The notes under the pieces were generated by a model. The model was not told where the DNA came from. It did not search any database and was given only the letters and a program-made list of their open reading frames with translations. Of a stretch of DNA of 64,000 nucleotides, positions 3,583-61,920 are shown piece after piece. The position numbers and the translations under genes were made by a program. Source of the stretch: Patescibacteria group bacterium (lineage in GTDB: Bacteria; Patescibacteriota; Patescibacteriia; UBA9934; GWF2-40-263); assembly GCA_004297215.1 (NCBI GenBank), contig SCUM01000001.1, positions 742,716 to 806,715 on the forward strand, written 5' to 3'. Every line of letters begins with the position of its first letter. Position 1 is the first letter of the stretch.

Positions 3583-3712
3583 GGACCAAGGTCGGAAGGT
3601 TTTGAAAGGACCAAAGGACACGTGAAAGGATTGAAGGACGAAAAGACGAAGGTTTTAAAGCCTTCGTCTTTCAATCCCTTTGACCTTTCACGTGTCCTTT
3701 GGTCCTTGGTCC
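3583..3712. repeat. 130-bp imperfect palindromic element, probable bidirectional terminator (copy 1)
   Basis: Long inverted repeat GGACCAAGG..GAAAGGACCAAAGGACACGTGAAAGG..GACGAAGGTTTTAAAGCCTTCGTC..CCTTTCACGTGTCCTTTGGTCCTTGGTCC between convergent holA and rpsT. Second copy at 61791-61920. Confidence 0.8.
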
Positions 3713-4003: not shown

Positions 4004-5116
4004 TTAGGATATCTCCGTTTCCCTGTCAATCTCGGGGGATGCAAGCGCCTTCCCCGTCTTCCCTGCGGCAATCTTGAAAATGTCCTTGTCGATTTTCTTC
4101 AGCTCGTTGCTCGACTCTGCATACGCGCGGGCGGTCGTCTCCAGATGCTTCCCGACCTTGCCGTGATACTCCTCGTACGCCTTGAGATGGCGATTGAGAT
4201 GTTCCGCCTGCACCTGGATCTCCTTCACCGAATCCTCGATCTGCAGCGCACGCAAGCCAAGCAGCACCGTCTGCAGGTAGGCGAAGAAGGAGGTGGGCGA
4301 CACGATCATCACCCCCTTCTCGAACGCGTACTCGATGAGATTGCGCGTGTTCACGTTCACGGCGCCGACGCTCGAGGTGATGAGATTGTGATAGACCCCT
4401 TCGGCCGGGACGAACATGAACGAAAAGTTCGTAGTTCCGCGCTCCGGACGGATGTATTTAGATGTCTCATCAATGCGCTTCTTGACGTCACTCTTGAATT
4501 CGCGCTCCAAGGCCTCTCGTCGGAGCGCATCTGTCTCAAGAGAAATTTTGTTGTAGTTCTCTAACGAAAATTTTGCGTCAATTGGTATCAACATTTCCTT
4601 CACGAAGATAACGGCATCTGGAATCAGTTTTGCATTCGTATCTTCGTCTACTCCCAGATCGTATTGCATTTGGTACTGGGTGGGTTGTAATACCTGTCCA
4701 AGAAGCGTTTCAAGCCAATATTCCCCAAGAATTCCTCGCTGCTTTGGATTCTTAAGAATATTTTCCAAGCTCTGTAGCTGTTTGGAGAAGTCCAGTACTT
4801 GCTTATTCGTTTCATCTAGCTTCGTGAGCTTTTCCGTTACATCCCGGACGATGCCAGAGGTATGAGCGGAATGCTTCTGGATCATCTGCATCGAATCATT
4901 CAGGCCTCGTGACATCCGGTCATCGATGCGATCCAGACGCCCCTGGAGTTCGGTTCTTCCCTTGGTTGATACCTCATCCATGTCCCGGCGGATGTCATTA
5001 AGCAGCTGGATCACTGACGAATCCAATGGGGCAGCTCCGACAGACCGCCTGGAATAGAAAAGAAAGGCGATAAGGCCGACAATCACGACAACCATGGCGA
5101 TTTCAATCGAATTCAT
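4004..5116 (-). CDS. rmuC: DNA recombination protein RmuC
   Basis: 370 aa. N-terminal TM helix plus coiled coil. C-terminal RmuC nuclease-like domain (FSFMFVPAEGVYHNLI...MIVSPTSFFAYLQTV). Confidence 0.85.
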   Translation of the reverse strand: MNSIEIAMVVVIVGLIAFLFYSRRSVGAAPLDSSVIQLLNDIRRDMDEVSTKGRTELQGRLDRIDDRMSRGLNDSMQMIQKHSAHTSGIVRDVTEKLTKLDETNKQVLDFSKQLQSLENILKNPKQRGILGEYWLETLLGQVLQPTQYQMQYDLGVDEDTNAKLIPDAVIFVKEMLIPIDAKFSLENYNKISLETDALRREALEREFKSDVKKRIDETSKYIRPERGTTNFSFMFVPAEGVYHNLITSSVGAVNVNTRNLIEYAFEKGVMIVSPTSFFAYLQTVLLGLRALQIEDSVKEIQVQAEHLNRHLKAYEEYHGKVGKHLETTARAYAESSNELKKIDKDIFKIAAGKTGKALASPEIDRETEIS

Positions 5117-5437: not shown

Positions 5438-5513
5438 GGGCCGATAGCTCAGCTGGTAGAGCGCTGCATTCGCATTGCAGAGGTCTGGGGTTCGATTCCC
5501 CATCGGTCCACCA
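5438..5513 (+). tRNA. tRNA-Ala (anticodon CGC)
   Basis: 76 nt. Acceptor GGGCCGA/TCGGTCC with G3:U70, D-arm TAGCTCAGCTGGTAGAGC, anticodon loop TTCGCAT, T-loop GGTTCGATTCC, CCA encoded. Confidence 0.9.
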
Positions 5514-5545
5514 GAGATCACTACGGAAGTAGTGATTTTTGTTTT

Positions 5546-5726
5546 GCTCAGCCCCGACGCTACGCCATCGAGTCTCAAGGCGTAGGTCGGGGGTCCGACC
5601 GAAGCGTCGGACCTGGTAGAGCGCTGCATTCGCATTGCAGCCCAGACGCTTTCTGATGAAAGGTCGGGGTCCCGGACCCATCAGGCGTCGGGAAGGTCTG
5701 GGGTTCGATTCCCCACAGGTCCACCA
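5546..5726 (+). pseudogene. tRNA-Ala-like gene copy disrupted by two palindromic insertions (pseudo-tRNA or unusual tRNA)
   Basis: The 3' two-thirds matches tRNA-Ala(CGC) exactly (CTGCATTCGCATTGCAG ... GGTCTGGGGTTCGATTCCCCACAGGTCCACCA). A 52-nt hairpin (CCCAGACGC..GCGTCGGG) sits in the variable-loop position. The D-arm region GCTCAG / CTGGTAGAGC is split by a second CCCGACGCT..AGCGTCGG palindrome. No intact 5' acceptor strand. Confidence 0.5.
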
Positions 5727-5757
5727 AAAGTCGCCTTGAAAGTGGCGACTTTTGTAT
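5727..5757 (+). terminator. Rho-independent terminator after the tRNA cluster
   Basis: AAGTCGCC-TTGAAAGT-GGCGACTTTTGTATTT hairpin followed by a T-run. Confidence 0.75.
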
Positions 5758-6029
5758 TTCTAAGTCGTAACACTATTTGATTTCAAATATATGGATCCTT
5801 ATCATCTTCCTAGCGGGGGACACTGCGCCTTTGTTGTTGATTAATCGTGCGGATTGATGTCCACGAGATCATGGAAATATATTACTACTTGTCTACAACA
5901 TTGTACACAAACGTGTAATTCATTTTTTGAGCTGTGGATAACATGAGATTTCGAAGAGGATACGCGAGATTCATTTGAAAAACGTACAGTAGTAACAATT
6001 TTCTTTGCTGACGTTAGCAATAAAATGCT

Positions 6030-6058
6030 TTGACCAAAACATGTATTCAAGGTATAAT
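6030..6058 (+). promoter_or_regulatory. Consensus sigma70 promoter of surface locus 1
   Basis: TTGACC, 17-nt spacer, TATAAT. Preceded by AAAATGCTTTGAC, shared with the promoter at 32728. Lies in a 270-bp AT-rich island. Confidence 0.7.
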
Positions 6059-6077
6059 ATGGTCTGTAGCTTAGACT

Positions 6078-11443: not shown

Positions 11444-11475
11444 CCCCCTCATGCTCCCCCTTTGATAAGGGGGAG
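11444..11475. repeat. Palindromic repeat CCCCCTCATG + CTCCCCCTTTGATAAGGGGGAG upstream of giant gene 1
   Basis: Same family as 20039-20092, 36258-36334 and 55450-55508. Sits 14 nt before the ATG at 11489. Confidence 0.75.
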
Positions 11476-11488
11476 ATAGCTCGTCCGC

Positions 11489-20038: not shown

Positions 20039-20092
20039 ACCCCCTCATGCCTGCCTGCCGGCAGGCAGGCTCCCCCCTTTGATAAGGGGGAG
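20039..20092. repeat. Composite palindromic repeat (inverted orientation) upstream of giant gene 2
   Basis: CCCCCTCATG + CCTGCCTGCCGGCAGGCAGG + CTCCCCCCTTTGATAAGGGGGAG, the reverse-complement arrangement of the copy at 55450-55508. Confidence 0.8.
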
Positions 20093-20106
20093 GTAGCGCA
20101 GCCGTT

Positions 20107-26100: not shown

Positions 26101-27555
26101 GGGACAGGGACCCTCAACTCGAGCTCGGACGTGCTTTCCCTCACCCAATTCATCACGACGAACAGCGGCGACGCGTTGGGCATCCTGCACCAGGGCACAG
26201 GCATCGGGGCCCACATCACCATGAGCACCGTGAGCGCCCCCGCATCCGGTTCCGTGGGCAACCAGGCCTTGGTGCTCGACACCAATGAGACGCAGAGCAA
26301 CGACGACATGTTCATCATCCGCTCCGACGCCGACGGCACTCCGGACACGGAGTTCATCTTCGAGGCCGACGGGGATGCCGTGGCCGACGGCAGCTTCACC
26401 GGCGGCGGGGCCGACTACGCCGAGTACTACCGTGTTTCCGACCAAGGGATTGAGGCCGGCGACGTCGTCTGCCTCGACCAGGAGAACCCTGGCGACGTCA
26501 CTCGCTGCTCCGCTTCCGCCCCTGTCCCCACCGGCGTCATCTCCACCAAGCCCGGGTTCCTCGCCAATGGCCAGGGCAGGGACGTGGCGGCCGACCCCTC
26601 GTTCAAGCCGGTCGGCCTGATGGGTCAGGTCCCGACGAAGGTCAGCCTTGAGAACGGCGACATCGCGGTCGGCGACCCCGTCGTCGCTTCCGTGACCGCT
26701 CCGGGACGCGCCATGAAGGCCGTCGAGGCCGGCCAGATCGTCGGCTACGCGCTCGAGCCCCATACCAGCCAGTCTCCTGACGCGGAGATCCTCGTATACG
26801 TGCGCCCTGGATACCACGCGGCACTCTCCTCCCAGACCGCCGCCGGCACCGACAACCGGGCTTCGGAGATCCCGTCCTCGGGCCTCACCGCGCTCAACAT
26901 GAGCGGCAACATCTACATGGCGGGCAACGGAATCCTCGACGTTGGCGCGATTGAGGGCATCGGCGCGCGCTGGTCGGTCGACGCCGATGGGAAATTCGCA
27001 ACCCAGGCTTCCTACGACGTGGTCATCAAGAGCTACCAGGACGAGGACGTGACCGTGCACGCGGTGCTCGGGCGCGAACACAAGGTGACGCTCGACGGCA
27101 CAGCGACCCTCGAGAACGGGGTCGCGACGGTCGCGTTCGAGACGGTCGACCCGCTCTTCAACGACATCACGTCGACGACGGCCGACATCCGCGTGTCCGT
27201 GACCCCCAACGGCCCCGCCTACCTCTATGTCGTCTCGAAGGACCACAACGGGTTCACGGTGCAGCAGTTGAACGGCAGCGACTCGGGCATCACCTTCGAC
27301 TGGTTCGTGAGCGCGTATCGGAAGGACTATGAGCCGGAGGTGATTGAGGTTGTTGAGGTGACGGAGGAGATGCCGGTCGAGGAATCGGTCCCGACCGAAG
27401 GACCCGTGCCGGAACCGGTCGTCGAAGAACCTGCACCTATCCAGGAGACGGCTCCCGTGACCGACCCGGCACCGACCGAGCCTGCTTCGACGGATTCGCC
27501 ACTGGTTGAAGAACCGGCGCCAGAACCGCCCCCGACAGATGAAACCCCGACATAG
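20107..27555 (+). CDS. Giant surface protein 2 (tandem paralog of giant 1)
   Basis: 2482 aa. The first ~135 aa after the TM and a ~1.3-kb internal block are near-identical to giant 1 at DNA level (20237-20610 vs 11617-11990; 21385-22650 vs 12560-13830). One C-terminal conserved module (26400-26780), conserved C-terminal domain, PE-rich tail. Confidence 0.85.
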   Translation: MDLLERKDHPLCRLMQGVVAVALVITGGIASTWVMFEALSVFAVSPPNIISYQGRLLNANGVPDASASRDFQFRLYDSLAAGTCLWSNDDSSCASDADLAVTLTDGLFSENLGDTGAGYAAIPDSVFADDASVFLEVEVEGEVLSPRKQIGAAAYAMNADTLDGINSTSFFVQNGNSLGAAAVLGTNDGFGLELETGGTTRLTLGTSGAITVPLAGSFVFDDDATDGLDDDMTLEVAASLAYPGFDVTVMHPSFGLLELVDPVNSAPGIALHGDLPAYAINVDNPGGAGTAFFPMSFFREGASSSPFFSMQTYPDDDGWAIYGPSVADPGVIQILEAGTVNAGAYAARSDASAIPILCASTRVEETAANLVQESCFMADGSLDLGLALAGTDTTVAQGGIERSSGSDETFAFANQGAGVLSLTADGTVDVSGHAAIGADALIDDGGLLYPGSTFSNTLNVSERSTDASVDYVEGTTNYLLYDPSADASGIWAIALDSEAATEATNAEDVGTLSAGYFNATHNGTGDITSWMSGIEAYVYTTATGGSSISNIGGYFSVTAQDPRATGTEDNYGVWSAVHRTGATGGTINTYGMYVDNDGVDAAGAGTSTLYGLFLESMTGADTNYSIYSAGGQSYHAGNFGIGATTPDADLDIEAAEDTERVRLTDSSNADSVGLYVGDGTAGLDGTLSAQAGSLFLDEDGKLWVNMDGATNWDQVATTAGGGTDLDGVYDNDSDKKMAVDNASGLEFESTTAGNVFVDLQSSGDFVIQSVGTAFATFNDSGNVSFENSLTVGSSSADVVLFNADVDSHFLPDDDDTYDLGADAQRWRDLYLGAATLHVGSLIGDEGTLSYDSTPNDFNFANGGATRMTIQSDGDVGIGDSMTSPTAQLHIKQTAAEDALRVDDEAAGTTYFVVDDGGNVGIGVTSGPSSTLHVVGDTRIGATDYVTMAQDGGGFYVEQIGSSDALRPIRLQSRNAATQYSQFFVDPVNGFQFLINATGANNNVGIADSTPDNLLDILSGSDAALALTSTGTDTDPLIKFELADGTPTFTLGVDDSDSDKFKISTTALGTSDRLVIDSSGFVGIGTSTPDAAFDVEAAVDANGANVLFEANDSGVSGSYFRIADGTEADTHFVPYIMTKGIGTGAADRAGLIIDAQPGEDGSDDVAVIVDAHLSGAALTSAHLFEVRNDATPLLRVAANGNLVSFGSVGIGTGTPGASLDVDPANVVGGGTSEQPSILGSNQVIALADGTTRANQRQFKFLAPTLNGVAGGGTETVTDAATFYVSDAPSGSDITFTNGPYALWVDAGTARFDGDAIVGGSTSITETLANAGFSIGGDDLFVAGTAGVEGNVYTDGSFIAGATLTLADSGITESGAFTFTSQLAAGGTTSSAYNLVTSNDLGSADEVLQIGDSTGTFATVLGNGNVGIGEVDPATILHVSGTQARVTIEDTGKGTGPAVLGHDSGMLFLENNGIRVISINDSGGSTGFGDQSPNAIVEVDQAGGSVDPFLISSNNGVDGDLFNVQDGGAVGVGDVSPDARFDIDDGAATGTIVGVLSNAGTQAGSLIGLSLDFDSSLAGAANLDFTGVRLLTPNLTQSTADTTDYLGYDLAAGAITQDTLAGTINWTGARIAMPVQVQTTGIVNTSGLTVTDNGSSNSGVKRGLFVDFSGIQSGGTLVGLDVDSITTGGGNGLGVRIGSGFDTDLQFVNAAAVIRVPNAGTLDFQDASENSLMLLTDAGSTSTLDVNGSIRAGTPGTDGQFRLYSEQGATDYEVAFNPHAAMTQATAYTLPADDGGSGQLLTTDGSGALSWSTAASGDITAVGSMTSGDAFADSTADDDWLGLGASAGRIEFDDQATDEVNILGANVGIGTSTPGSTIDATSPATLTTAYQLLADSVTDGTGLELSLDSLNEGYGLLVTSTADADYGSDLAGFQQFAVSTGTATMDGNVERIVQNLDSSTTGTLTVSGNAMRIQRAVNANSGTTLDATGAVMRISDQTGAGTGTLNSSSDVLSLTQFITTNSGDALGILHQGTGIGAHITMSTVSAPASGSVGNQALVLDTNETQSNDDMFIIRSDADGTPDTEFIFEADGDAVADGSFTGGGADYAEYYRVSDQGIEAGDVVCLDQENPGDVTRCSASAPVPTGVISTKPGFLANGQGRDVAADPSFKPVGLMGQVPTKVSLENGDIAVGDPVVASVTAPGRAMKAVEAGQIVGYALEPHTSQSPDAEILVYVRPGYHAALSSQTAAGTDNRASEIPSSGLTALNMSGNIYMAGNGILDVGAIEGIGARWSVDADGKFATQASYDVVIKSYQDEDVTVHAVLGREHKVTLDGTATLENGVATVAFETVDPLFNDITSTTADIRVSVTPNGPAYLYVVSKDHNGFTVQQLNGSDSGITFDWFVSAYRKDYEPEVIEVVEVTEEMPVEESVPTEGPVPEPVVEEPAPIQETAPVTDPAPTEPASTDSPLVEEPAPEPPPTDETPT

Positions 27556-30118: not shown

Positions 30119-30203
30119 GGGCTTGGGAGGTTCGACCTGGGAGGTTGAACCTCCCAGGTTGAACCTCGACACGCGACCGTTTCTCCGCTAGCATGCGCCC
30201 ATT

Positions 30204-31277: not shown

Positions 31278-31294
31278 GCAGGTCGCATAGGCAG

Positions 31295-31370
31295 GAAGGC
31301 CTCAGGCCCCAGGCATGAAGGTTACACATGGCGCTCATGTTTTCCTTAGGCCTTTCCGCCTGAGGCCTTC
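31295..31370. terminator. Imperfect long hairpin between convergent ychF and the methyltransferase gene
   Basis: GAAGGCCTCAGGC ... GCCTGAGGCCTTC arms. The motif CATGAAGGCCTCAGGC recurs at 56050-56070. Confidence 0.5.
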
Positions 31371-32313
31371 ATGCCTTGCGCATCACCACGATCTCCCGCG
31401 CCACCTTTTGCCCCTTGCGTTCGTACAGGAACGTCCGTTCGATCGTGAATCCGATCGGAGCAAGGATGGTGTTCAAGGGGAGGCGCAGCTTCTGGGTGCC
31501 GCGCACGAAGGCCGGGAAGGCGATCGCGGCCCGCGCGCCCGGCTTCATCACGGCATGCACGCCGACGAGCATCTTTGCGTAGGACTGGCCCAAAACGGCC
31601 ATGTTTTTTTGGATCGTCTCAAGCGTTTCGCGGCCGGTCATCGGCGGGCCGAGATACGTTTCACCGGCCACGGCGTCGACGGGATCCTTGAGAATCGCCG
31701 CGAGGTCGGCCGCGTCACAAACGTACACCGACACGCGCGAGGCGCGAGCCTCCGGGAATTCCTTGCGCACCCATTCGAGGTTGCGTCCCGTGTCCGCAGT
31801 CGCCTTTTTCGAGATGTCCGAAGCGATGACCGCCTTGAACCCCATCAGCATCGCCTCCATCGGAACCGTCCCGCTCCCGCAGAACGGATCAAGGAGCACA
31901 AGGCTCGCTACCCCTCTCCTCTCGGAGGAGAGGGCATGGGTGAGGTCCGCGCCCGTGCCCGTGGCGAGGTTCACGAGCGTGCGCGCGAGCTTGGGCGGGA
32001 GCATCCCGCTTTTCGCGTCGCGGCTGGGGCGCCCGAAGTCACGTTTCGACCATGCCTCGAAATCCTGGACCGCCTCGGTGCGCCCGACGAGGATCCCGTC
32101 CTTGGTGGCAACGAGTACGATGTCGCCGGCCTTTGCCTGCGTGGTCACTGCCACGCTCGAGAGCGTGTCGCCCTTCATCGTGACGACACGCACCTTGCGT
32201 CCTTCGGCCTCGAGCGTGCGTTTCACGGTCATCCCGATCTTGCTTGCCTCGCCCTTGAGGTTGCCGAACAGGGGAGCGTTGCCGCCGTCATAGAGCGACA
32301 GGCCAAATGTCAT
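31361..32313 (-). CDS. Putative RNA (guanine-N2) methyltransferase, UPF0020/Trm11-RlmL-like
   Basis: Start MTFGLSLYDGG at 32313. Class I MTase motif I LLDPFCGSGT. The N-terminal region is consistent with a THUMP-associated family. The long ORF extension to 33168 runs through a repeat and is rejected. Confidence 0.7.
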
Positions 32314-33426: not shown

Positions 33427-33428
33427 AT

Positions 33429-33517
33429 AGTGCGTAGTGCGTAGTTGGTAGTACGTAGGAAAGAAAATCTACGCACTACGAACTACGTACTACGAACTAC
33501 GTACTACGCACTACGCA
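33429..33517. repeat. Hairpin built from ACTACGY heptamer arrays (left flank of the four-helix-bundle gene)
   Basis: AGTGCGTAGTGCGTAGTTGGTAGTACGTAGG..loop..CTACGCACTACGAACTACGTACTACGAACTACGTACTACGCACTACGCA. Confidence 0.8.
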
Positions 33518-33532
33518 AACATATGAACAACG

Positions 33533-33888
33533 AAAAAACGGGTTCGTACCAAGACTTGATCGTGTGGCAGAAGGCCATGGATCTTGTGGTCGGTGTTTAT
33601 GAGATTACAAAAGATTTTCCTACAGATGAGCGGTATGGGATCGTGAGTCAGATGAGACGTTCCGCCGTGTCTATCCCGTCGAACATTGCGGAGGGATATA
33701 GGCGAAAAAGCGAGGTGGATTTTCAAAGATTCCTCCGGATCGCCTATGGCTCAGCGTCTGAACTCGAAACACAGCTCCTCATTGCGCAACGGTTACGATA
33801 CGGGCCAGCAAGCTTTGCCCGAACGGATGCTCTCCTGGAAGAAATTCTGAAAATGTTAAACAAGATGACGGAAGGGAAGAGTTCGTAG
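33533..33888 (+). CDS. Four-helix-bundle protein (23S rRNA intervening-sequence protein family)
   Basis: MNNEKTGSYQDLIVWQKAMDLVVGVYEITKDFPTDERYGIVSQMRRSAVSIPSNIAEGYRRKS..FLRIAYGSASELETQLLIAQRL matches the TIGR02436-type family. The annotated upstream start lies inside the hairpin repeat. Confidence 0.8.
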
Positions 33889-33983
33889 TCCGTAGTCCGT
33901 AGTGCGTAGGAAAAACCTACGACTACGAACTACGGTCTAGGAAACCGGTCTACGTACTACGCACTACGTACTACGCACTCCGC
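33882..33983. repeat. Heptamer-array hairpin (right flank of the four-helix-bundle gene)
   Basis: TCGTAGTCCGTAGTCCGTAGTGCGTAGG..CTACGACTACGAACTACGG, followed by further CTACGTACTACGCACTACGTACTACGCAC units. Confidence 0.8.
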
Positions 33984-36236: not shown

Positions 36237-36257
36237 CTCCTCAGACCCCACCATGCC

Positions 36258-36334
36258 TCCCCTTTCCAAGGGGAGGGTAGCGGAAGCGAGCTATCTCCCC
36301 CTTGGAAAGGGGGAGCATGAGGGGGTCTGCGGCG
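36258..36334. repeat. Cluster of palindromic repeats upstream of giant gene 3
   Basis: CCTCCCCTTTCCAAGGGGAGGG, then CTCCCCCTTGGAAAGGGGGAG + CATGAGGGGGTCTGCGG (parts 1 and 3 of the composite element). Confidence 0.8.
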
Positions 36335-53446: not shown

Positions 53447-53515
53447 CTTGACCCGGCCCTGCCTTGACCCTTGACCCGGCCCTGCCTTGACCCGGCAGAC
53501 GGGATTGATTAAGAT
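53447..53515 (+). promoter_or_regulatory. Tandem CTTGACCCGGCCCTGC repeats (4 TTGACC boxes) and the promoter of the rpsF-ssb-rpsR operon
   Basis: CTTGACCCGGCCCTGC x2 plus CTTGACC plus CTTGACCCGGCAG. The last TTGACC, a 17-nt spacer, then TAAGAT, about 70 nt upstream of rpsF. Confidence 0.55.
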
Positions 53516-53584
53516 GCCCGCGATCATTATTCATCTGTCCATGGCCGAAAAACGGCCGCTCGGTTCCCCCCGGGCCAGACCCAT

Positions 53585-54094
53585 ATGAAGTTTTACGAAT
53601 TCCTCTACATCCTCCCGAGCAAGTACGCCGAGAACGAGATCGACCCCGTCGTGAAGGCCGTGACCGAGATGACACAGAAGGCTGGCGCAGAGGTCGTGAA
53701 GACCACGGTGCTCGGCCGCCTCAAGCTGGCGTATGCGATCGAAGGGTCCCGGTACGGCACGTACGTGCTCACCTATTTCAACGCCGAGCCTGCCGCCTTG
53801 CAGGCGCTCGATCGCGCCTTGTCCCTTTCCGACGAAGTGCTGCGCCACACCATCCTTTCGGCCAAGGCCGGGGATGAGTCGAAGAAGGTCGAGCTCTCCG
53901 CCTACGTCGCGCCTCTCTCCGAGGAGGCCCGCGAGGAGCGCGCTCCCGACCGCCGCCCTGCGCCGCCGCGCGCCGCCGCCCCGGTCTCCGCCGTCGCAGC
54001 CGCGGTGAAGCCCGCCGAGCCCGCCATGTCCATCGAAGAACTCGACAAGAAGCTCGACGAGATCCTAGATTCGGATATTTCAAAAGGAGTTTAA
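53585..54094 (+). CDS. rpsF: 30S ribosomal protein S6 with Ala/Pro-rich C-terminal extension
   Basis: MKFYEFLYILPSKYAENEIDPVVKAV...YGTYVLTYFNAEP. The S6 fold occupies the first ~100 aa, followed by a low-complexity tail. Confidence 0.9.
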   Translation: MKFYEFLYILPSKYAENEIDPVVKAVTEMTQKAGAEVVKTTVLGRLKLAYAIEGSRYGTYVLTYFNAEPAALQALDRALSLSDEVLRHTILSAKAGDESKKVELSAYVAPLSEEAREERAPDRRPAPPRAAAPVSAVAAAVKPAEPAMSIEELDKKLDEILDSDISKGV

Positions 54095-54096
54095 CA

Positions 54097-54177
54097 TGCT
54101 ACGAACCAACGAACGGCTACGAAACTACTAAAATACCTTTTGTTCGTAGTTTCGTAGCCCGTTCGAAGGTTCGTAAC
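54097..54177. repeat. CTACGAA-heptamer hairpin between rpsF and ssb
   Basis: GCTACGAACCAACGAACGGCTACGAAACTAC..loop..GTTCGTAGTTTCGTAGCCCGTTCGAAGGTTCGTAAC. Confidence 0.75.
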
Positions 54178-54184
54178 ACCACCT

Positions 54185-54685
54185 ATGTACTCTCTCAACC
54201 GCGCCACCATCCTCGGCAACGTCACGCGCGACCCGGAGCTGCGTCAGACCGGCTCGGGCCAGAGCGTGTGTTCCTTCTCCGTGGCCACCAACCGCAACTG
54301 GACCGACGCCGCGGGCGCCAAGCAGGAGGCGGTCGAGTTCCATAACTGCGTGGCCTGGGCCAAGCTCGCCGAGATCTGCGGCTCCTACCTCGCCAAAGGC
54401 CGCAAGGTGTACGTCGACGGGCGCCTCCAGACCCGCGAGTGGGACGGCCAGGACGGCCAGAAGCGCCGCACCACCGAGATCGTCGTCGAGAACATGATCA
54501 TCCTCGATCGGGCCGGCACGGTCGCCGGGACCCCGGCAGCCGGCTCCGCCGCGCCTGCTGCGAACCGATTCTCCGCCCCGCCGTCTCCGCCTGTCCCCCG
54601 AAGCTTCAGCGAAGGGGGGAAGGCCAAGGACGACCCGGCCCCGAACCCGGACGACGAGATCAAGGTGGAGGATATTCCTTTTTAA
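54185..54685 (+). CDS. ssb: Single-stranded DNA-binding protein
   Basis: MYSLNRATILGNVTRDPELRQTGSG..VAWAKLAEICGSYLAKGRKVYVDGRLQTREW, OB fold. Acidic tail DDEIKVEDIPF. Contains an in-frame repeat insertion (PRSFSEGG). Confidence 0.92.
   Translation: MYSLNRATILGNVTRDPELRQTGSGQSVCSFSVATNRNWTDAAGAKQEAVEFHNCVAWAKLAEICGSYLAKGRKVYVDGRLQTREWDGQDGQKRRTTEIVVENMIILDRAGTVAGTPAAGSAAPAANRFSAPPSPPVPRSFSEGGKAKDDPAPNPDDEIKVEDIPF
54596..54624. repeat. CCGAAGCTTCAGCGAAGGGGGG repeat inserted in frame in the ssb C-terminal tail
   Basis: Same 18-mer as polA 871-888. Encodes PRSFSEGG in both proteins. Confidence 0.7.
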
Positions 54686-54686
54686 A

Positions 54687-54755
54687 GTGCGTAGGTGGTA
54701 GTACGTAGTGCGTAGGATTTATTTTCTACGCACTACTGACTACGCACTACGTACT
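54687..54755. repeat. ACTACGY-heptamer hairpin between ssb and rpsR
   Basis: AGTGCGTAGGTGGTAGTACGTAGTGCGTAGG..loop..TACGCACTACTGACTACGCACTACGTACT, nearly identical to the arm at 33429. Confidence 0.8.
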
Positions 54756-54768
54756 CCTTCATAAAACT

Positions 54769-55002
54769 ATGCGCAACACCTCCAACAACCCCATGCAGAA
54801 GCAGCGACATTGCCACTTCTGTGCCAACAAGATCGACGAAGTGGACTACAAGGATGTCACCCTCATCCGCCGCTTCCTGTCTTCCTTCGCGAAGATCGTG
54901 GCGCGCAAGCGTTCCGGCGTGTGCATGAAGCACCAGCGCCAGCTCGCGAACGCCGTGAAGCGCGCCCGCATCATGGCGCTCGTCCCGTTCGTGCAGCGTT
55001 GA
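54769..55002 (+). CDS. rpsR: 30S ribosomal protein S18
   Basis: 77 aa, ..CHFCANKIDEVDYKDVTLIRRFLSSFAKIVARKRSGVCMKHQRQLANAVKRAR. Confidence 0.95.
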   Translation: MRNTSNNPMQKQRHCHFCANKIDEVDYKDVTLIRRFLSSFAKIVARKRSGVCMKHQRQLANAVKRARIMALVPFVQR

Positions 55003-55009
55003 GAGAAGC

Positions 55010-56059
55010 ATGCGCCGCGTCCAGGACATCGCTTCTGAACGACAACGATTGAACGACCTCATCCGGTCGTTCTTTCGGTCTAGGGGCTATGCCGAAGTGG
55101 AAACGCCCACGCTGGTCGCGAGCCCAGACCTCGCGCCGAACTTTACCTATTTCGAGACGACGCTCGTCGCCCCGGGAGAGAAGCCGCGGCAGGGGGCGCT
55201 CATCACGAGCCCCGAGTTTTCCATGAAGAAGCTGCTCGGGCAGGGAATGGAAAAGATCTTCACGCTCGCTCGCGTCTTCCGCAACGACGAGGACCTGGGC
55301 GGCACCCCTTCGACAGGCTCAGGGCAGGTGCACAACCCGGAGTTCACCATGCTTGAGTGGTACAAGCAGGGCGCGGACTATCACGAGATGATGGATGAGA
55401 CGGAAGCGTTGGTGCGCGAGGCTTGCGCGGCGTTCTCAAAGCCAGCTACCTCCCCCTTGGAAAGGGGGGAGCCTGCCTGCCGGCAGGCAGGCATGAGGGG
55501 GTCTGCGGGCGCCTTCAGGCGCCTACGCGTCCGCGACCTGTTGCTCGACACCGCCGGCGTGGATCTCGACACGGCCTCCGCTGCCGACCTCGCCGAGGCC
55601 TGCGACCGGCTCGGCCTGCACCGCGACGCGGCAGACACCGAGAGCGACCTGTTCTACCGCCTGTTCCTCGCGAAAGCGGAACCGTCGATCGGCACGGTCC
55701 CCACGTTCGTCTACGACTATCCGCTCTGCCAGGCGGCGCTTGCGGCAAAGACGGCGGACGGGAAATACGCGCAGCGCGTCGAGCTCTATGTCGACGGGGT
55801 CGAACTCGCGAACGGCTTCACGGAACTCACGGACGCGACCGAACAACGCGCCCGATTCGAGGCGGAACGCGCCGAGCGCGTCGCGTCCGGGAAGAGCGCG
55901 TTCCCCGTTGACGAGGAACTGCTCGCGCTGCTACCATCCGTCCGTTCTCCGACGTACGGCAACGCGCTCGGCATCGACCGGCTGCACATGCTGTGCATCG
56001 GCACCAAGGAAATCGGGGATGTCCTGCTGTTCCCGGCAAGTAAATTATTTAAGGCATGA
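55010..56059 (+). CDS. epmA: EF-P lysine-34 beta-lysyl ligase EpmA (PoxA/GenX, class II LysRS paralog)
   Basis: HNPEFTMLEWY, VELANGFTELTDATEQRARFE, GNALGIDRLHMLC match PoxA. About 350 aa with no anticodon-binding domain. Immediately upstream of efp. Confidence 0.85.
   Translation: MRRVQDIASERQRLNDLIRSFFRSRGYAEVETPTLVASPDLAPNFTYFETTLVAPGEKPRQGALITSPEFSMKKLLGQGMEKIFTLARVFRNDEDLGGTPSTGSGQVHNPEFTMLEWYKQGADYHEMMDETEALVREACAAFSKPATSPLERGEPACRQAGMRGSAGAFRRLRVRDLLLDTAGVDLDTASAADLAEACDRLGLHRDAADTESDLFYRLFLAKAEPSIGTVPTFVYDYPLCQAALAAKTADGKYAQRVELYVDGVELANGFTELTDATEQRARFEAERAERVASGKSAFPVDEELLALLPSVRSPTYGNALGIDRLHMLCIGTKEIGDVLLFPASKLFKA
55450..55508. repeat. Full composite palindromic repeat inserted in frame inside epmA
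   Basis: CTCCCCCTTGGAAAGGGGGGAG + CCTGCCTGCCGGCAGGCAGG + CATGAGGGGGTCTGCGG, encoding ..TSPLERGEPACRQAGMRGSAG... Confidence 0.85.
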
Positions 56060-56128
56060 AGGCCTCAGGCGTTAAGGCTTCAGGATTTCCTGCGGCCTTG
56101 TCCGCCTAAGGCCTTGTCCGCCTCCCCT

Positions 56129-57710: not shown

Positions 57711-57836
57711 GCGTCCTCCCGTTACTTGGATTGCATTGGATTGTGAAAGAAGGACGCACCGTAACGGAAAAAGCGCATTCTGTCAATCTCCTATGGGTGG
57801 CACAGAAACGAACAAAGATTCATCCACTTCCGTTCA

Positions 57837-57865
57837 TTGACAGAAGGACGAAATCATGATTGAAT
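57837..57865 (+). promoter_or_regulatory. Candidate promoter with extended -10 in a gene-free interval
   Basis: TTGACA, 17-nt spacer, TGATTGAAT. It would start a plus-strand transcript that meets a terminator 45-90 nt downstream. Confidence 0.35.
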
Positions 57866-57906
57866 GGCAACAGCTGGATGAGGCAACGTGCTCAATCTCC
57901 CGGTGT

Positions 57907-57958
57907 CACGAATAAGACCCACGACCTTCAAAAAGTCGACGGGTCTTATTCGTTTTTT
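57907..57958 (+). terminator. Rho-independent terminator (plus strand)
   Basis: ACGAATAAGACCC...GGGTCTTATTCGTTTTTT. Confidence 0.7.
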
Positions 57959-57959
57959 G

Positions 57960-58150
57960 GCCCCGGGCCGTGTGAGTGAGGAGGGCCTATGGAGGCGACA
58001 CCTCAGTGTCGTCCTGAGGAGTCTCAACGACCAAGGATCTCGAGGTCCTTCGCTCTGCTCAGGATGACACTGACGTGTCGGTTCGACTCCCGCGAGGTCC
58101 ACCAACCTTCGCTCTGCGGAGTTTCGGTTGGCGTAGCCGCGGCCCGGGAC
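57960..58150 (+). ncRNA. Candidate structured small RNA with tRNA-like 3' end (GGTTCGACTCC...GAGGTCCACCA); identity unresolved
   Basis: 190-nt interval between two terminators with no plausible ORF. The ends pair (GCCCCGGGCCG / CGGCCCGGGAC). A 15-bp internal stem (CAGTGTCGTCCTGAG / CTCAGGATGACACTG). T-loop-like GGTTCGACTCC followed by GGTCCACCA. Confidence 0.3.
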
Positions 58151-58152
58151 CA

Positions 58153-58180
58153 AGAAAACCGACCTCTGAGGGTCGGTTTT
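58153..58180. terminator. Bidirectional hairpin terminator
   Basis: AAAACCGACC-TCTGAG-GGTCGGTTTTCG, with an A-run 5' and a T-run 3'. Confidence 0.7.
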
Positions 58181-58208
58181 CGCTTCTGGCCAACACCGGG
58201 CGTTGGAG

Positions 58209-61702: not shown

Positions 61703-61790
61703 AAGGGGGAGGGGGTAGGGGGTAGGTGGTAGTGGGTAGGGAACGGCTAGTAGCCTAGCAGACGGGTAGGGGCGCGCAAGCGGAAAAAAG

Positions 61791-61920
61791 GACCAAGGCC
61801 GAAAGGCTTTGAAAGGACCAAAGACGACGTGAAAGGATTAAAGGATGTAAAAATAAAGGCTTTTAAAGCCTTCGTCTTTTTCCTTTTAATCTTTCACGTC
61901 TCCGTTGGTCCTTGGCCCTT
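61791..61920. repeat. 130-bp palindromic element (copy 2), terminator downstream of the rodZ-like gene
   Basis: GGACCAAGGCCGAAAGGCTTTGAAAGGACCAAAGACGACGTGAAAGGATT...GCTTTTAAAGCCTTCGTCTTT...CTTTCACGTCTCCGTTGGTCCTTGGCCC. About 80% identical to 3583-3712. Confidence 0.8.

Follow-up and report, generated by a model that had tools for sequence, protein, structure and literature searches.

Repetitive extragenic palindromic (REP) elements and bacterial interspersed mosaic elements (BIMEs) of enterobacteria and pseudomonads are short extragenic palindromes, often found within operons, that carry the conserved tetranucleotide GTAG, protect upstream mRNA from 3′ exonucleases and give differential expression within operons. 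The short tandemly repeated repetitive (STRR) heptamers of cyanobacteria are intergenic tandem 7-nt repeats abundant in particular lineages. In Beggiatoaceae, TAACTGA heptamer direct repeats are likewise intergenic and lineage-abundant, and a post-transcriptional role has been suspected for them (PMC4679880). The dynamics of REP doublets that form hairpins (REPINs) have been described (PMC3116915). Correia repeat enclosed elements (CREE) and enterobacterial repetitive intergenic consensus (ERIC) elements are dispersed, co-transcribed inverted-repeat inserts that fold as hairpins; Correia elements in an mRNA are cut by RNase III, whereas transcripts that bear ERIC are acted on by RNase E, with changes in mRNA levels (PMC10969869). 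In the hmw1 5′ untranslated region (UTR) of Haemophilus influenzae, 7-nt repeats are transcribed in a run that makes up a single arm of a long hairpin cleaved by RNase III; expression is tuned by the number of repeats, whose expansion and contraction are affected by both the hairpin and RNase III (PMC12721329). The intervening sequences (IVSs) in the 23S rRNA of Leptospira, Coxiella and Salmonella are inserts closed by an inverted-repeat stem, some of them with an open reading frame (ORF) of family PF05635, and are tolerated as the stem restores local geometry; the terminal repeats pair in a stem of ~28 bp that is cut by RNase III (PMC4990558). Here we describe two hairpins that fill the spacers on either side of ssb in the rpsF–ssb–rpsR operon of a Patescibacteria group bacterium (assembly GCA_004297215.1, contig SCUM01000001.1, positions 742,716 to 806,715; this 64,000-nt stretch is hereafter the window). 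We propose that they belong, independently of each other, to a dispersed class of intergenic palindrome and probably act as intercistronic RNA stem-loops.

Both spacers consist over nearly their whole length of a stem-loop (Table 1). The left hairpin begins 2 nt past the rpsF stop and finishes 6 nt ahead of the ssb ATG, while the right hairpin begins immediately after the ssb stop (0 nt) and finishes 13 nt ahead of the rpsR ATG; of 200 shuffles for each sequence, none folds as well. The original prediction that two hairpins directly flank ssb is therefore borne out. Its description of them as the same heptamer hairpins holds for the right one, which is built from a GTNCGTA heptamer array, a 6-nt loop and a TACGNAC array, and not for the left, which is made of ACGAAY units at irregular spacing and with the opposite polarity (TACGAAC... 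then ...GTTCGTA). The predicted near-identity of the right hairpin to the region 33429–33459 is confirmed, with 22 of 23 bases of its 5′ arm (54686–54708) matching 33436–33458, an aberrant unit included. With at most one mismatch allowed, the heptamer dimer TACGNACTACGNAC has 20 matches in the window where 0.2 would be expected, and all of them are confined to 33430–33518, 33881–33978 and 54701–54754. Since the last of these intervals lies in the right hairpin, that hairpin is a true member of the heptamer family; the left hairpin holds no such match, and aligns through three invariant ACGAA blocks with hairpins of two relatives (contigs L238 and L028; contigs outside the window are given by L numbers) and not with its neighbour across ssb. 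Cross-pairing of the two reaches −4.3 and −12.3 kcal/mol compared with −44.4 and −40.2 kcal/mol for the local folds, which rules out an enclosure of ssb by long-range pairing of its hairpins. Rfam 15 brings only three tRNAs of the window to the gathering score, and at permissive thresholds the hairpins give just weak, generic microRNA-precursor matches far below threshold. A strong ribosome-binding-like motif of a kind rare among the window genes, AAAGGAG, stands at the end of rpsF, and 7 nt further on an 11-codon ORF, MLRTNERLRNY (54096–54131; region 54080–54131), follows the left hairpin's 5′ arm and has its stop codon in the loop.

Table 1. Features of the window and of related contigs. Coordinates are those of the window unless a contig is named; ΔG is in kcal/mol.
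Feature	Position	Strand	Description
Likely operon promoter and rpsF 5′ leader	53487–53584	+	TTGACC-17-TAAGAT promoter-like site at 53487–53515; two covarying hairpins
rpsF (ribosomal protein S6)	53585–54094	+	Pfam Ribosomal_S6, E 2.4e-20
Left hairpin, rpsF–ssb spacer	54097–54178	+	33 pairs, ΔG −42.4, z −9.4; ACGAAY type, related to the heptamer family
ssb (single-strand DNA-binding protein)	54185–54685	+	Pfam SSB, E 1.6e-38
Right hairpin, ssb–rpsR spacer	54686–54755	+	29 pairs, ΔG −42.0, z −8.7; heptamer family (TACGNAC/GTNCGTA type)
rpsR (ribosomal protein S18)	54769–55002	+	Pfam Ribosomal_S18, E 4.6e-22
Third internal hairpin, epmA-like–efp spacer	56055–56115	+	AAGGCCTCAGGC family, ΔG ~−38; missing in L242
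Other AAGGCCTCAGGC-type hairpin	31289–31376
Left heptamer hairpin of IVP cassette	33428–33520	+	heptamer family; 4 GTNCGTA units, loop, 7 TACGNAC units; ΔG −54.5, z −10.7
23S_rRNA_IVP four-helix-bundle gene	33523–33888	+	Pfam PF05635, E 9.7e-40
Right heptamer arrays of IVP cassette	33881–33982	+	heptamer family; ΔG −50.2; local fold or pairing with left arrays
AAGGACC-type hairpins	3606–3707, 61813–61913		after rpsT and the gene upstream of recA
CCCCCTTTGATAAGGGGGAG-type hairpins			directly before three giant genes (2814, 2482 and 4299 aa)
Spacers in L238			rpsF–ssb 4 nt, no hairpin; ssb–rpsR hairpin ΔG −39, ACGAAT units
Spacers in L239			rpsF–ssb 4 nt, no hairpin; ssb–rpsR hairpin ΔG −33, GAGCGAG-like units
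Spacers in L240/241			rpsF–ssb 1 nt, no hairpin; ssb–rpsR hairpin ΔG −37, GGGTGTA units
Spacers in L242/243			rpsF–ssb 40 nt, unstructured; ssb–rpsR hairpin ΔG −45, CTGATNTA units
rpsF leader in relatives	L238 118–202; L239 905–995; L240 205–295; L242 862–953
IVP contexts besides the window			L193, L189, L117, L217, L218, L222, L228, L229–L236, L237
IVP array units, upstream/downstream			L193 GTCCGTA/TACGGAC; L217 GTGCGTA/TACGCAC; L222 GTAGCTA/TAGCTAC; L237 GTGAGTA/TACTCAC; further unit types at other loci

Hairpins of this kind are not confined to the operon. Wherever a spacer in the window measures at least 50 nt, one or more strong hairpins occupy it, drawn from at least four repeat families, and the spacers that lack hairpins are tiny. 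Besides the heptamer type, at least four more families of long intergenic hairpins are seen; in addition to the AAGGACC- and AAGGCCTCAGGC-type sites of Table 1, they are represented at 11450–11480, 20065–20095 and 36239–36332, and separately at 30127–30167. Tandem GGGGGTA/GGTGGTA heptamers lie close upstream of recA (61705–61740). In the window together with 1.17 Mb of loci from other Patescibacteria, 26 tandem arrays have a period of 7, compared with 0, 2, 4 and 11 for periods 5, 6, 8 and 9, respectively. A pattern scan of metagenomes for three consecutive TACGNAC units returned at least 120 contigs; about 35 of those listed carry long, near-perfect hairpins, nearly all with the order GTNCGTA array, loop, TACGNAC array, and two with the order reversed. 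The variable third base of the heptamer differs between elements, and the other arm always carries its complement. These hairpins typically begin ~0–20 nt from a stop codon and end ~1–30 nt from the next start; among the matches listed, 21 lie between co-directional, 4 between convergent and 4 between divergent genes. Flanking pairs such as the genes for S18 and L9, urease gamma and beta, and two Proton_antipo_M proteins place the hairpins inside operons. One contig was checked for taxonomy (L109), and because the named relatives of its MreB are Blastocatellia (Acidobacteriota), the class is not limited to Patescibacteria. GTCCGTA/TACGGAC palindromes are also seen in operons for multi-subunit complexes on contigs in the range L081–L200, among them L143, L126, L153/L166 (between rpsR and rplI) and L109, whose gene content is not Patescibacteria-like; ORF callers translate such arrays as '...TTDYGLRTTDYGL...'.

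Three other identities were considered and dropped. A CRISPR-like array does not fit arrays that are palindromic, and an assembly artefact does not fit an architecture that recurs across many independent assemblies. For integron gene cassettes (attC sites with GTTRRRY core sites), the window has no integrase, 34 relatives share the order rpsF–ssb–rpsR, and the arms consist of heptamers in tandem and not of attC boxes. A literature search with the repeat sequences returned only unrelated, primer-like matches.

Measured against the described elements, the structures are a variant of the known REP-, MITE- (miniature inverted-repeat transposable element) and IVS-like palindromes. As with REP elements, they are short extragenic palindromes that carry GTAG and often lie within an operon; all four heptamer-related sites in the 64 kb are extragenic, and many copies exist in metagenomes. 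However, the stems here, at 29–33 bp, are longer than those of REP elements and BIMEs, and as they consist of tandem units, more than one register of pairing is open to them. The right hairpin has a GTAG at each 7-nt step of its arm and the left hairpin has it on the 3′ arm, whereas a REP element has it once, at the foot. No REP-associated tyrosine transposase (RAYT), the partner of REPINs, was seen among the window proteins scanned. They resemble Correia and ERIC elements as dispersed inverted repeats, but there is no clear arrangement of terminal repeats plus core and no parent insertion sequence, the whole element being a palindrome of tandem units. Candidate flanking direct repeats, TAACA at the left hairpin and CCTTTTTAAA / CCTTCATAAAA at the right, were found by eye and are too weak to be taken as a target-site duplication. 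The hmw1 hairpin shares the heptamer run as the arm of a long hairpin, but there the repeat occupies one arm only, and it is a single phase-variation locus in a 5′-UTR and not a dispersed intercistronic family. Finally, STRR and TAACTGA repeats are mostly direct arrays, in contrast to the inverted pairs that build near-perfect hairpins here.

A comparison with relatives helps to separate the two hairpins. The gene order rpsF–ssb–rpsR is conserved in 34 syntenic relatives and in the four closest ones (SSB 72–78% identical); L242 keeps the order through efp, and the other close-relative contigs end sooner. Among the 34, the median spacers are 19.5 nt (rpsF–ssb) and 31.5 nt (ssb–rpsR), and structure of −30 kcal/mol or lower is present in two of the former and two of the latter, with no relative having both. 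In the four closest relatives the ssb–rpsR spacer measures 83–99 nt and always holds a hairpin, so this position is occupied in 5/5 clade members by structures of unrelated sequence; in L240, a GGGTGTA heptamer palindrome (1290–1360) fills the spacer. The left hairpin is missing from all four and from most of the 34 syntenic relatives. Its absence in close relatives leads us to conclude that it is a recent lineage-specific gain and that the bracketing of ssb is incidental. In L238 a second ACGAAT hairpin (−50 kcal/mol) follows rpsR, so that it is rpsR and not ssb that is bracketed. Once the hairpins are subtracted, the window spacers come to 8 and 13 nt, comparable to those of hairpin-free relatives (11 and 5 nt in L001). 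The ssb–rpsR hairpin suggests either selection on structure at the junction or a long-lived 'safe slot' for such elements.

Structure near ssb and rpsR recurs further afield. Across 80 relatives, 4 of 18 heptamer arrays lie next to ssb, three of these belonging to one Peribacteria lineage, and the association is not significant when counted by events. The Peribacteria contigs carry a palindrome of GTGNNTA units upstream of ssb (L071 8234–8314, L062 4760–4836, L072 9920–10001), the gene upstream in L071 being rpoB; between L071 and L072, GTGG/CCAC has become GCGG/CCGC on both arms with pairing kept. In seven Uhrbacteria-like relatives (L006, L008, L010, L014, L015, L017 and L018), a small hairpin (CAYCCCGCRCG...CGYGC) with apparent compensatory changes lies ~40–60 nt upstream of rpsR; the window is without it.

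The remaining heptamer sites of the window enclose a gene of the 23S rRNA intervening sequence protein (IVP) family. The left cassette hairpin finishes 2 nt ahead of the IVP ATG, and the gene, which has a GC content below that of its neighbours, runs into the following heptamer array and ends there with its stop codon. Its product is 100% identical to the NCBI entry 'four helix bundle protein [Patescibacteria group bacterium]', and one further window protein likewise matches an NCBI entry of a Patescibacteria group bacterium at 100% identity. The flanks have two near-equal folds, a local one (−54.1 and −39.6 kcal/mol) and a long-range one that encloses the ORF (−49.9 kcal/mol outer, −46.1 kcal/mol inner). 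In all ten independent contexts examined, IVP genes stand between inverted tandem-unit arrays. Scored for ungapped inverted repeats, the flanks of the 10 IVP genes reach a median of 15, compared with 7 at 42 control genes (Mann–Whitney p = 1.8e-5); this score was used instead of the duplexfold energy, which is non-discriminating in GC-rich DNA (control median −40). The cassettes lie between genes of one operon, for example between pyrH and frr or between prgI and traC. In L217, a close relative (YchF 86% identical), a cassette follows ychF where the window has a different hairpin, and the elements thus come and go between close relatives. On heptamer-bearing contigs, tblastn finds few IVP genes and a two-sequence profile finds more; most hairpin contigs have no IVP gene on the fetched stretch. 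In L237, the IVP ORF reads through the downstream array. On L228 (150–950), arrays of TACGAAT units lie to either side of a PDDEXK_3 gene and a second gene, of 131 aa, and the same unit type builds the rpsF–ssb–rpsR operon hairpins of L028 (1236–1282) and L238 (1199–1275 and 1524–1598). In L011, the ssb–rpsR spacer (4970–5006) has CTACTCA in four tandem copies, for which an inverted partner is not obvious; these units belong to the family that also makes up the arrays at the L237 IVP gene.

The layout is that of a 23S rRNA IVS, with an inverted-repeat stem that closes an insert and, in the window cassette and nine others, a PF05635 ORF inside it; both the ssb hairpins (29–33 pairs) and the cassette flanks have the long closing stem, and the tolerance of an insert whose stem restores local geometry would be a further likeness. 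In contrast to IVSs, which reside in helix 9, 25 or 45 of 23S rRNA, these elements lie between protein genes, with no rRNA in the window, and they build their stems from heptamer-like units in tandem. Neither of the ssb hairpins has an IVP ORF, their loops being 6 nt (right) and ~17 nt (left). Our literature search found no paper that describes IVP genes between heptamer arrays, that is, this layout outside rRNA. Of the leads that the comparison has given, the connection with IVP cassettes interests us most. It is conceivable, if rather speculative, that tandem-heptamer palindromes with or without an IVP gene form one mobile intervening-sequence family that is not confined to rRNA and lives in protein-operon spacers across Patescibacteria and perhaps other phyla. 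The stem would close the insert and excision by RNase III would make it harmless; the ssb hairpins would be ORF-less members, of which the ssb–rpsR hairpin would have been co-opted by the host to punctuate the operon mRNA.

The arms in this class are runs of short tandem units, typically of 7 nt and often with GTAG/CTAC, and the elements settle in narrow gaps between the genes of compact operons, both in this genome and in its relatives and other phyla. Each of the two hairpins is transcribed as part of the rpsF–ssb–rpsR(–epmA–efp) mRNA and folds on its own to a stem-loop of ~30 bp. We have thus shown the structures and how they are related by family, distributed and conserved, and from this we infer the following effects on RNA processing and expression. 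Folding would place the stop codon and the next start 8–13 nt apart at the foot of the stem, approximately the spacing in hairpin-free relatives, and the bringing together of stop and start would thereby make the inserts tolerable in an essential operon. The stems could then be substrates of a double-strand RNase such as RNase III, as in 23S rRNA IVSs; instead of this, or in addition, they could hold up 3′ exonucleases in the manner of REP elements in enteric operons. In both cases the lifetime of the mRNA would differ between its rpsF, ssb and rpsR segments. Cleavage by RNase III in particular, which we propose tentatively and by analogy, gains plausibility because the stems are 29–33 bp long, which makes them natural substrates for the enzyme, the IVP arrays are IVS-like and the H. 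influenzae heptamer hairpin is cleaved.

Several observations weigh against a role as RNA stem-loops. Folding is equally good on both strands (the sense strand is better in 13 of 21 cases and the antisense in 8 of 21, with a mean difference of −0.5 kcal/mol), so nothing shows selection on the RNA rather than on a DNA palindrome; a G–U wobble bias as a sign of RNA-level selection was rejected on the same count of 13 to 8. Template switching between the arms during replication could keep them complementary with no need of a function, and the conservation of a hairpin between ssb and rpsR could reflect an insertion hotspot and not selection. Among the window proteins scanned, with the giant ORFs outside the scan, there is no RNase III gene, transposase or RAYT. 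In addition, this operon repeatedly bears hairpins of the ACGAA/TACGNA type; examples come from the window, from L238 and from L028, where the hairpin is the only one of its type in 1.17 Mb of relatives, and also from between rpsR and rplI in the unrelated L153/L166. This recurrence hints at a preference for the operon that an incidental placement leaves unexplained; it may stem from high expression, from a real preference or from sampling.

The original prediction went further and gave, as a plausible function of the pair, RNase III-type processing sites that would uncouple the stability or translation of ssb mRNA from the S6 and S18 genes, which would make the pair a device dedicated to ssb. 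The exact flanking of ssb and the positional conservation of the ssb–rpsR hairpin speak for such a device, and S6 and S18 act as a pair, with SSB required in other amounts. It does not hold up in the relatives, however, where the left hairpin is lacking in 4/4 of the closest, strong structure is found in both spacers of 0/34, and the L238 pair encloses rpsR; moreover, the two hairpins belong to different sub-families that do not pair with each other, the class is dispersed, and by our estimate a pair in adjacent spacers would arise by chance among ~30 spacers at ~0.06 (with the IVP pair set aside). An ssb-specific device is therefore quite improbable. The prediction was right to find terminators on both sides of a mid-operon gene odd: the tails after the hairpins, ACACCACCT and CCTTCATAAAAC, contain no U-tract, a terminator scan of the window reports neither hairpin, and the two are not canonical terminators. 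For some high-GC bacteria, U-tract-independent terminators have been put forward, and very stable stems directly past stop codons might act as such terminators or attenuators and lower transcription stepwise along the operon. Yet canonical terminators with a GC stem and a T-run lie near 27545, 29980, 56750 (following efp) and 60600, so the genome has ordinary terminators and uses them at the ends of its units. Because ssb and rpsR start 6 and 13 nt past the stems, with no room for a promoter, they must be transcribed through the hairpins. The class is also not enriched at convergent gene ends, is present in divergent spacers and occurs inside operons for multi-subunit complexes, and we consider termination a most improbable function.

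A different reading denies the hairpins any RNA role and sees in them selfish or neutral DNA palindromes, in which slippage expands the units, template switching keeps the arms matched and copies survive in spacers. Consistent with this are the strand symmetry of folding, the occurrence in all gene orientations including divergent spacers, the unequal arms (4 versus 7 units at 33428–33520), the fast turnover of sequence between close relatives and the recent arrival of the left hairpin. The arrays also contain TAG in all three frames, so a copy that enters the 3′ end of a gene terminates it cleanly. What neutrality accommodates poorly is the ssb–rpsR hairpin itself, present in 5/5 clade members despite full replacement of its sequence, and with it the compensatory changes that maintain pairing upstream of ssb in the three Peribacteria contigs, the retention of ~100-nt inserts in many spacers of small, streamlined genomes, and the difficulty that a transcribed stem of 30 bp would hardly be invisible to double-strand RNases. 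On balance we judge it unlikely. Alternatively, the units could be binding sites for a protein, for example the pentameric IVP four-helix-bundle protein or a RAYT, with the hairpins as recognition or mobility sites. The consistent enclosure of IVP genes by arrays, the GTAG at every seventh nucleotide and the mobile-element-like spread across phyla would suit such sites, but neither a transposase nor a RAYT is among the window proteins scanned, most array-bearing contigs lack an IVP gene on the fetched stretch, and the unit sequences vary too widely between elements to resemble the targets of one specific protein, which makes this a doubtful proposition with little likelihood. We continue to favour intercistronic RNA stem-loops.

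The nearest SSB relatives in the genome collection come from Candidatus Uhrbacteria and other Patescibacteria metagenome-assembled genomes, and the window SSB ends in a native C-terminal ...DIPF followed by its own stop codon. An EpmA-like class II tRNA-synthetase paralogue and efp (both by Pfam) follow rpsR, and the G+C content of the window is 64.7%. Upstream, the rpsF leader is kept in the window, L238, L239, L240 and L242, with compensatory changes in 4/12 pairs; its layout is a −10-like TAAGAT, a block ATTATTCATCTGTCCA and then the two hairpins. Rfam gives no match to this leader at E ≤ 5, and it may be a divergent S6:S18 autoregulatory leader. Elsewhere in the window, two regions, 5511–6077 (~570 nt) and 57711–58208 (~500 nt), have strong predicted structure, no confident ORF and no Rfam match.

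These results replace an ssb-specific account with a general one, in which the operon spacers of very small genomes are populated by hairpins of tandem 7-nt units. As the arrays have a stop in each of the frames and lend themselves to being translated as part of an ORF, the genes next to them will be mis-extended by gene callers. The ssb–rpsR hairpin, kept while its sequence has been fully replaced, provides a natural test case for structure-only selection in mRNA. How 23S rRNA intervening sequences arose and how they move, together with what their conserved ORF does, has been a question since the early 1990s, and the IVS-like layout of stem plus ORF in the spacers of protein genes offers many more insertion sites to compare.

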